Positions 50,963 through 51,327 of a stretch of 64,000 bases of DNA are shown here, piece by piece. A program made the position numbers and the translations under genes. How positions within the stretch are numbered: the first letter of the stretch is position 1; every line of letters starts with the position of its first letter. A model generated the notes under the pieces. It was given only the letters and a program-made list of their open reading frames with translations, was not told the origin of the DNA and did no database searches. Origin of the DNA: an uncultured Clostridia bacterium (lineage in GTDB: Bacteria > Bacillota > Clostridia > Oscillospirales > Acutalibacteraceae); the NCBI GenBank assembly GCA_945912145.1, contig CAMEBF010000008.1, positions 12,925-76,924 on the forward strand, read 5' to 3'.

Positions 50963-51327
50963 AAAGACGCATCCAGCAATTTCTCCTGGATATACAAAGG
51001 ACGGCTCTTTCGAGTGTCCGATGTGTTACCATAAATGCGTCTTGTGTTTGAAAGACACCAACAGCAAATCAGGTTTCCTTGTCAGCTCGTTCTGTACTAC
51101 CGACGGTGTCTTGTCTCAGAAAAGATGCGCACTGCAACAGGAATCGCAATGGTCCTCAGGACGCCTGTTTATGGAACAGGAGATCAAACGGTGAAATTCC
51201 GTTTTTTGCGCAAAACGCATCTTGTATAAAGGCGCCGAACAGCAATCACGACTAGCTTCTGGATAAAGCGGGGAGCTTATAACTCCTGATTTCGGGTTTA
51301 TTCCCGATACGGCGCCTTGTTTTTTTT
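50963..51327 (+). ncRNA. array of four tandem stem-closed structured RNA modules (Y-RNA-like candidates)
   Basis: Each module is AAAG-N5-6 ... N'5-6-CTTGT. The closing helices are 50964-72/51035-43, 51052-59/51105-12, 51122-29/51216-23 and 51229-37/51310-18. The AAG/CTT ends are conserved and the inner base pairs covary. The array ends in T8. No ORF with an RBS is present. Confidence 0.55.
51228..51327 (+). ncRNA. module 4: tRNA-like (YrlA-like) element
   Basis: 9-bp GC-rich closing stem. D-like arm GCTT-CTGGATA-AAGC. A 5-bp arm with the 7-nt loop CTTATAA (U33 and A37 positions fit an anticodon loop). A 4-nt variable region. T-like arm TCGGG-TTTATT-CCCGA. Then T8. Confidence 0.5.

Follow-up and report, generated by a model that had tools for sequence, protein, structure and literature searches.

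The window analyzed here is a stretch of 64,000 nucleotides (nt) of genomic DNA from an uncultured Clostridia bacterium (GenBank assembly GCA_945912145.1, contig CAMEBF010000008.1). It carries, at positions 50963-51319 of the plus strand, a tandem array of four RNA modules, M1 to M4, which we interpret as a candidate set of Y-RNA-like RNAs and which stands in front of the genes for a DUF2828 protein with a predicted Ro60-like fold and for an RtcB RNA ligase (Table 1). Every module is closed by a perfect helix of 8-9 base pairs (bp) of the form A-AAG…CUU-GU, referred to below as the clamp. The clamp encloses an interior that varies between modules, referred to as the cargo. Neighboring modules are spaced 3-7 nt apart, without an internal promoter, and the array ends 36 nt upstream of the Ro-like gene, which is encoded on the same strand.

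Table 1 Features of the RNA module array and its surroundings (window coordinates).
Feature	Position	Strand	Basis and remarks
WYL-domain regulator gene, 414 aa	48745..49989	+	Pfam WYL, E 1.6e-7; PADLOC WYL; homolog in 59 of 80 related loci
WYL/WCX-domain regulator gene, 303 aa	49986..50897	+	Pfam WCX, E 3.3e-5; PADLOC WYL, E 4.5e-10; homolog in 63 of 80 related loci
Terminator-like hairpin	50879..50916		A and T runs on the flanks; read from the sequence; closes the regulator genes
Promoter candidate, sigma-70-like	50920..50948	+	ATGATA-17-TACAAT; promoter scan, 9 of 12 matches, consensus only; about 15 nt upstream of M1
M1	50963..51044	+	Clamp AAGACGCAT 50964-72 / ATGCGTCTT 51035-43, 9 bp; CCAGCAA at 50973-79; non-tRNA cargo
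M2	51051..51113	+	Clamp AAGACACC 51052-59 / GGTGTCTT 51105-12, 8 bp; ACAGCAA at 51061-67; short cargo
M3	51121..51224	+	Clamp AAGATGCG 51122-29 / CGCATCTT 51216-23, 8 bp; ACUGCAA at 51131-37; tRNA-like cargo 51145-51211
M4	51228..51319	+	Clamp AAGGCGCCG 51229-37 / CGGCGCCTT 51310-18, 9 bp; ACAGCAA at 51239-45; degenerate tRNA-like cargo
U8 run (T8)	51320..51327	+	Sequence; directly after the M4 clamp, 27 nt before ATG 51355; possible leaky terminator or 3'-end signal
Ro60-like protein gene, 496 aa	51355..52845	+	DUF2828 + DUF7788/vWA; Pfam; PHROG 850; AlphaFold2 and Foldseek
RtcB RNA ligase gene	52897..54129	+	Pfam RtcB, E 2e-55; PHROG tRNA splicing ligase, E 1.5e-123

An initial annotation of this DNA had described the four closing helices, the A that precedes each 5' arm and the AAG with which the arm starts, and the CTT at the end of each 3' arm followed by GT. 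The description holds to the base in all four modules, and the two arms of each are perfectly complementary. The closing helices are retained in the minimum-energy and centroid structures of M1-M4 calculated with RNAfold. Folding z-scores relative to dinucleotide shuffles are -4.1 for M1, -1.7 for M2, -2.3 for M3, and -4.7 for M4. The array has two features beyond those of the initial annotation. An unpaired heptamer, (A/C)C(A/U)GCAA, is located just inside every 5' arm (CCAGCAA in M1, ACAGCAA in M2 and M4, and ACUGCAA in M3), and the interiors of M3 and M4 are tRNA-like. The local hairpins quoted in the annotation are present in the sequence. The CCAG-9nt-CTGG hairpin of M1, however, sequesters the conserved CAGCAA motif and is probably a folding coincidence and no real element. 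The T8 run was likewise found where it had been placed, ending 27 nt before the downstream gene.

The modules are conserved in related bacteria. We analyzed 80 Clostridia genome loci, mostly from gut or rumen metagenome-assembled genomes, that encode proteins 61-75% identical to the DUF2828 protein of the window. In 73 of the 80 loci, one to nine modules of the form A-AAG-R-Y-R-C-NN-ACAGCAA … A-rich-N-G-Y-R-Y-CUU-G-U/A precede the DUF2828 gene in the same orientation, and 84 of the 174 gaps between neighboring modules are 15 nt or shorter. Cultured carriers include Hominifimenecus sp. rT4P-3 (NZ_CP167068.1, around 404-414 kb) and Anaerotignum lactatifermentans DSM 14214. The ACAGCAA heptamer, which was not required by the search, is conserved to 84-99% per position at a fixed offset. 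The anchor AAG-N6-ACAGC, which does not presuppose a helix, occurs 257 times on the gene strand and seven times on the opposite strand. An exact complement of the anchor's own 7-nt arm follows downstream, within 170 nt, at 220 of 264 anchors, compared with 7.5 +/- 2.5 when arms are swapped between anchors. Together with the strand bias, these numbers place the closing helices beyond chance.

Covariation was evaluated in a set of 114 distinct clamps that combines Clostridia with cultured phages and uncultured viral contigs. Two-sided changes occur at all nine clamp pairs, in 221 cells. Column shuffles give 83.5 +/- 7.8 such cells, and sliding of the partner strand gives 10-38. The eighth clamp pair, which was not used in the selection, is CG in 20, UA in 18, AU in 17, and GC in 13 cases. 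The covariation of the inner pairs that had been read from the four modules of the window thus extends to homologous loci, where compensatory changes preserve the helices. G-U and U-G pairs also occur in the clamps, which indicates that the structure is specific to the plus-strand RNA.

A covariance model of the complete module (R2) was built from 90 full-length modules, excluding the four of the window, and run unfiltered on both strands of the 64-kb sequence. The model is based on a MAFFT alignment with 3-nt flanks; an end-trimmed version was rejected because its 3' arms were misaligned. The three top matches in the window, all with correct ends, are M1 (35.6 bits, E 5.7e-6), M2 (35.3 bits, E 6.7e-6), and M4 (28.0 bits, E 3.3e-4). 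M3 scores weakly, at 9.8 bits, because of its ACUGCAA motif and long interior. Applied to cultured-phage loci, R2 finds modules beside DUF2828 genes. Neither R2 nor the anchor scan detects a clamp copy outside the array in the window. One further R2 match, at 16512-16546 (+) (AAAAGUCACG-12 nt-CGUGACUUGA; 16.5 bits, E 0.16), is a short clamp-stem-like hairpin that has neither ACAGCAA nor cargo and is probably a chance match. A model of the clamp only (R1, 39 positions) was discarded, as it cannot span interiors of 50-100 nt and matched short hairpins only.

The clamp modules are also present in viruses. When IMG/VR was scanned with only the RNA pattern AAAGGCACNNACAGCAA, the loci fetched contained 121 matches, 67 of which have a closing GTGCCTTG helix. 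A DUF2828 homolog with only 35-43% identity is encoded, inside the fetched sequence, in 31 of the 120 viral loci retrieved by the RNA pattern, irrespective of the presence of the closing helix. The association of DUF2828 proteins with the modules therefore holds both ways, from protein to RNA in the Clostridia loci and from RNA to protein in the viral ones. Nine cultured-phage loci with a DUF2828 homolog, from GenBank, were examined. Seven of them contain a total of 24 R2 matches, which all lie beside the DUF2828 gene and on its strand: three in Listeria phage A511, four in coliphage SUSP2, three in mycobacteriophage Faith1, two in Campylobacter phage PC14, six in Bacillus phage Thrax2, three in Staphylococcus phage CF9, and three in Enterococcus phage Porthos. 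Fourteen of the 24 matches belong to four phages outside the training set. In phage Lak-A1, a regular-expression scan identified one candidate module.

The clamp helices of phages differ completely in sequence (AGGAAUC, AGACC, UGGAC, etc.); what is kept is ACAGCAA, together with an A-rich 3' strand and a G that follows the helix. The heptamer is retained in phages of Actinobacteria, Firmicutes, and Proteobacteria, the partner proteins of which are 30-40% identical. The modules of SUSP2, Faith1, and CF9 are located downstream of the DUF2828 gene or amid tRNA genes, and phage modules in general are often found within tRNA gene arrays, sometimes with ROOL RNA. In Listeria phage cka15 (locus L204), clamp modules at approximately 3088-3355 are positioned directly upstream of CKA15_055, behind a promoter-like sequence TTGACA-17-TATCAT. 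The modules might in principle be degenerate tRNA pseudogenes, or a repeat element that has no function of its own and spreads in the vicinity of genes for tRNAs and RNA repair, given their tandem arrangement, variable copy number, and tRNA-derived interiors. We give this explanation hardly any credence, as it does not fit the 257:7 strand bias, the covariation of the helices, the retention of the 7-nt motif across phages of three phyla, and the confinement of the copies in the window to the array.

The surroundings of some modules contain additional structured RNAs. ROOL RNA (RF03087, 312-323 bits) and long tRNA arrays share their stretches with clamp modules in loci L044 (2065-2639), L099 (5852-6477, minus strand), and L134 (3837-4428); in L044, the DUF2828 gene follows them closely. 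Beside phage tRNA arrays in L134 (10084-10167) and L099 (187-276, minus strand), the OLE RNA model (RF01071) is matched in part, at about 53 bits and over positions ~436-595 only; these matches may represent a shared sub-structure rather than OLE itself. The cka15 locus also contains, at 1840-2500, about 600 nt of non-coding sequence annotated as the small open reading frames CKA15_059-061, with a TTGACA-17-TATAGT promoter-like site. This region reportedly accounts for up to 67% of phage transcripts (PMC12282133). We considered these abundant transcripts as candidate clamp modules and rejected them; they belong to another non-coding region, separate from the modules. In the Rfam gathering-threshold scan, the near-identical sequence of phage A511 (L201) matched tRNA only.

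The cargo of M3 is composed of a 4-bp acceptor-like stem, a D-like arm (51151-62), an anticodon-like arm (51164-80) with a 5-nt loop, and a T-like arm (51186-51204). Its alignment to the Rfam tRNA model covers the full length (model positions 1-71) and scores 20.8 bits (E 0.11), short of the gathering score of 29. Cargo of this type (AAAGAUGC, in modules of ~105-112 nt) is shared by 32 homologs, in which the anticodon-like and T-like stems covary. The cargo of M4 contains D-like (51253-70), anticodon-like (51271-87), and T-like (51293-51306) parts, and M4 can be aligned with gene-proximal modules in which the cargo scores above the Rfam tRNA threshold. M4 itself has no match to the tRNA model, and ARAGORN identifies no tRNA in the window. 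In other modules, M1 and M2 among them, the interior is short or unrelated. Two recurrent classes of non-tRNA cargo were observed in the relatives: GAAUGCCGAUG…CUCGGAGGUAAGGCA, in modules of loci L018, L019, L024, L027, L041, L047, L048, L056, L072, and L078, and CUGAAUAGGCNAGGAG…ACCCUUAUC, in modules of L010, L018, L020, L034, L035, L040, L067, L072, L078, and L079.

In Clostridia loci, the gene-proximal module usually contains a tRNA with its parts in the normal order, in many cases above the Rfam threshold. The cargo at 3898-3969 of locus L074 scores 53.1 bits and is called tRNA-Phe (GAA) by ARAGORN; the calls on the cargo of relatives are tRNA-Phe, tRNA-Leu, or tRNA-Glu. In three loci, a genuine tRNA-Phe(GAA) gene is directly followed by a clamp module with tRNA-Phe-like cargo (L074, 3805-3880 and 3898-3969; L069, 509-584 and 602-673; L010, 3798-3873 and 3893-3963), and the cargo copy of L069 has a Leu UAA anticodon. 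The sequences suggest that the tRNA-like cargo arose by duplication of a neighboring tRNA. Phage cargo often forms a permuted domain in the order T-arm, acceptor stem-loop, and D-arm. Two such modules of Enterococcus phage Porthos match Rfam YrlA at 45.9 bits (E 4e-9) and 34.4 bits, relative to a gathering score of 69, and the alignment spans their tRNA-like part, not the clamp.

Because some relatives carry complete tRNAs, the most serious rival explanation sees in the modules caged precursors of tRNAs or a reserve of tRNA-like substrates, which the clamp holds inactive and protected until processing enzymes or RtcB release or repair them upon tRNA damage. Full tRNAs are recognized in the cargo of relatives by both Rfam and ARAGORN, genuine tRNA-Phe genes are positioned immediately 5' of such modules, and phage modules are found inside tRNA arrays. 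Furthermore, YrlA of Mycobacterium smegmatis can serve as a substrate of RNase P and of CCA addition (PMC4201824). We nevertheless regard this explanation as unlikely. The cargo of many modules, M1 and M2 among them, is too short or too unlike a tRNA for such a role. M3 and M4 are degenerate, with scores below the threshold or no match, an acceptor stem of 4 bp or none, and, in M3, the 5-nt anticodon-like loop. The conservation resides in the clamp, not in the cargo.

The DUF2828 protein matches PHROG 850, 'RNA-binding protein', with an E-value of 1e-132. The AlphaFold2 model of the protein, which has a predicted local distance difference test score (pLDDT) of 70, is all-helical in the N-terminal two-thirds and α/β in the C-terminal third. 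The best seven Foldseek matches of the model in the PDB are all structures of Ro60/Rsr (2nvo, 1yvp, 2i91, 9nf8, 9nfa), with E-values of 2e-6 to 2e-5, probability 1.0, and full-length coverage, and isolated vWA domains rank next. The prediction thus supports a Ro60-like architecture, with a helical repeat followed by a vWA domain. The initial annotation had named the downstream gene a vWA gene; the vWA domain is present, and the gene is more exactly described as DUF2828 with DUF7788/vWA and a Ro60-like predicted fold. [quoted passage not shown] The relationship to Ro60 is apparent from fold comparison only, as neither single-sequence nor profile searches of the protein against PDB chains identified a Ro60 match.

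Homologs of the DUF2828 protein in phages are annotated as 'Ro-like RNA binding protein', and the best HHpred match of the Listeria phage homolog CKA15_055 is Rsr of Deinococcus radiodurans (PMC12282133). The protein family includes 6,935 clusters at 50% identity, with homologs in 710 GenBank phage records; the phage carriers include Listeria phages A511/P100, Felix-O1-like coliphages, and cluster L mycobacteriophages. The gene for RtcB was found in 57 of the 80 related loci, mostly 20-100 nt 3' of the DUF2828 gene. In the literature searched, DUF2828 is named only in papers on plants and on a tardigrade genome, with no tie to RNA.

The array shares the general design of Y RNAs. All four modules have a terminal helix, formed by the 5' and 3' ends, around a variable loop region, and they are encoded within ~4 kb of a gene for a Ro60 counterpart on the same strand, although this partner is Ro-like by fold and not by Pfam TROVE. 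Like YrlA (RF02553; PMC4201824), the modules have an end-to-end closing stem with a conserved single-stranded motif of the 5' strand just inside it, and are encoded no more than a few kb from a Ro-type gene and in its orientation, often together with RtcB. They also share with YrlA the tRNA-like interior, a hallmark of bacterial Y RNAs (PMC4201824), and with YrlA/YrlB the possibility of several RNAs per locus. The modules differ from YrlA in their motif, which is ACAGCAA in the family of the window and GNCGAAN0-1G in YrlA, in the clamp, which the YrlA model leaves unaligned, and in their partner, which is DUF2828 instead of Pfam TROVE. They also differ in forming arrays of up to nine modules, and a large part of their cargo does not resemble tRNA. 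The order in M3 and M4 is the normal one, D - anticodon - T, instead of the permuted YrlA order of T arm, acceptor stem-loop, and D arm.

The constant protein-binding stem and variable factor-recruiting loop of D. radiodurans Yrn1 and metazoan Y RNAs, which in D. radiodurans recruits PNPase, also have likely counterparts in the array. M3 and M4 resemble Yrn1 in the placement of a stem-loop between T- and D-like elements, which in Yrn1 corresponds to the anticodon-arm position and in YrlA to the acceptor-stem position (PMC4201824). Unlike Yrn1 and metazoan Y RNAs, the array lacks a bulged GGUCCGA-type helix, and it has no similarity to them in sequence or by covariance model. The modules have D-, anticodon-, and T-arm equivalents in common with tRNA (RF00005), in M3, M4, and many relatives, yet the clamp that encloses all modules has no counterpart in tRNA genes.

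The gene order resembles the rsr-yrlBA-rtcBA operon of Salmonella (PMC7790460), which combines a Ro-type gene, RNAs, and RtcB, with WYL regulators here in place of RtcR. Thermus phage phiLo similarly encodes a Ro-type protein with stem-closed small RNAs, Yrl1 and Yrl2, just upstream (PMC12135203); those RNAs, in contrast, carry CGAA and bind a canonical Ro60. Y-RNA partners have been suspected for CKA15_055 (PMC12282133), which is a DUF2828 homolog; the RNAs proposed in that study, CKA15_059-061, are not clamp modules. The 2014 survey of bacterial Y RNAs covered TROVE-annotated genomes only (PMC4201824), and partners of DUF2828 proteins were therefore outside its scope. In the literature covered by our searches, we found no description of the clamp RNA family; the suggestion made for CKA15_055 comes closest.

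We propose, with a probability of roughly 0.68, that the four modules are small non-coding Y-RNA-like RNAs that dock on the Ro-like DUF2828 protein and act with RtcB in RNA damage control. The Y-RNA architecture recognized in the initial annotation is supported by the Ro-like neighboring gene, RtcB, the covarying helices, the tRNA-like interiors, and the YrlA matches in phage. A constant clamp combined with interchangeable working ends is the design of Y RNAs. As judged from the sequence comparisons, the array is a distinct class outside the described Y-RNA families that would function like a set of Y RNAs. At gathering thresholds, Rfam 15 has no match in the whole window, and the clamp itself matches no Rfam family.

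Several observations weigh against the proposed interpretation. A comparison of the array with Rfam at E <= 10 retrieves neither Y_RNA nor YrlA, only the sub-threshold tRNA in M3. The described Ro-binding motifs, namely the bacterial GNCGAAN0-1G / CGAA and the metazoan GGUCCGA bulged helix, are absent from all four modules. Pfam TROVE (PF05731) has no match at E <= 10 in any of 15 members of the DUF2828 family. The template modeling (TM) scores of the pLDDT 70 model to Ro60/Rsr are low, 0.35-0.37, and because of this we claim only the architecture and not the ring shape. Since modules entered the base-pair counts only if their helix had at least 6-7 bp, the percentage of paired positions is inflated for the outer pairs. 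Finally, phage KVP40 encodes a DUF2828 protein, and neither R2 nor the scan detected a module in the 7.4 kb analyzed (3 kb on either side of the gene).

We infer that the modules are transcribed, processed, and bound by the DUF2828 protein, and that they function as its Y-RNA-like partners. The four modules would probably be transcribed together from the promoter-like site at 50920-50948, and partial read-through of the U8 run may extend transcription into the Ro-like gene and rtcB. The tandem layout, short gaps, and lack of an internal promoter point to one processed precursor, which would be cut or trimmed into RNAs of ~60-105 nt with ends held by the clamp helix. The clamp, including the 8-9 bp helix, unpaired ACAGCAA, A-rich 3' strand, and terminal G, is the likely docking site of the DUF2828 protein, equivalent to the Ro-binding stem of Y RNAs. 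The variable interior would be the working end, a tRNA mimic in M3 and M4 and a different element in M1 and M2. The interior could link the protein to other factors such as RtcB, nucleases, or tRNA enzymes. Alternatively, it could imitate a tRNA and so act as a decoy or guide when RNA is damaged.

The position of the array between the promoter-like site and the gene, in the window and in most Clostridia loci, would also suit a cis-acting leader of the DUF2828-rtcB operon. Its modules would serve as attenuators or sensors that set read-through at the M4 helix and U8; the signal might be uncharged or damaged tRNA, or the WYL regulators. The GC-rich M4 clamp followed by U8 does resemble a terminator. 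A T run, however, follows only 9 of 46 gene-proximal modules in other loci, so U8 is not a feature of the family. A cis-regulatory leader is a single element with a fixed position in the 5' untranslated region; the modules occur in one to nine copies, are located downstream of the gene or amid tRNA genes in SUSP2, Faith1, and CF9, and contain heterogeneous classes of cargo. We judge a leader function to be quite improbable.

Bacterial systems of Ro60 and Y RNA are considered relatively rare, and their function is unclear. To our knowledge, Y RNAs have been found only beside TROVE-annotated genes. The modules described here indicate that the much more abundant Ro-like group of DUF2828 proteins has conserved RNA partners of its own. 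A broader hypothesis, on which we are evenly divided, is that the ACAGCAA clamp marks a second, possibly larger, and undescribed branch of Ro ribonucleoproteins (RNPs), in which it is a universal docking module for interchangeable cargo. Together with RtcB, such RNPs would provide an RNA-damage response in gut Clostridia and a counter-defense kit in phages, for example against anticodon nucleases. The cargo considered interchangeable in this hypothesis comprises whole tRNA copies, permuted tRNA mimics, and at least two other recurrent folds.

If it exists, the second branch of Ro RNPs is directly testable in model phages. One signature is shared from gut Clostridia to phages of Listeria, Escherichia coli, Mycobacterium, Staphylococcus, Enterococcus, Bacillus, and Campylobacter, and provides a simple rule of sequence and structure for the annotation of hundreds of unannotated RNA genes. 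Phages A511/P100 in Listeria, Felix-O1-like phages in E. coli, and cluster L phages in M. smegmatis are tractable models for a Ro-type RNP with RtcB. The natural swaps of cargo on a constant clamp bear on the evolution of Y RNAs from tRNAs.

Upstream of the array, the two WYL/WCX regulator genes overlap each other. The terminator-like hairpin at their end was not reported by a simple terminator scan, as its 10-nt loop is above the limit of the scan. The start of the Ro-like gene is more likely ATG 51355 than GTG 51346, the start in the mechanical list of open reading frames, because of the AAAGGAG sequence upstream of the ATG and the resulting length of 496 aa, which is that of nearly all homologs. 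Directly 3' of rtcB, at 54532-56850 (+), the window encodes a 772-aa protein with TPR, TIR, and RCC1-repeat domains. The protein resembles the product of a defense or signaling gene, with a weak PADLOC match (PDC-S66, E 2e-4).

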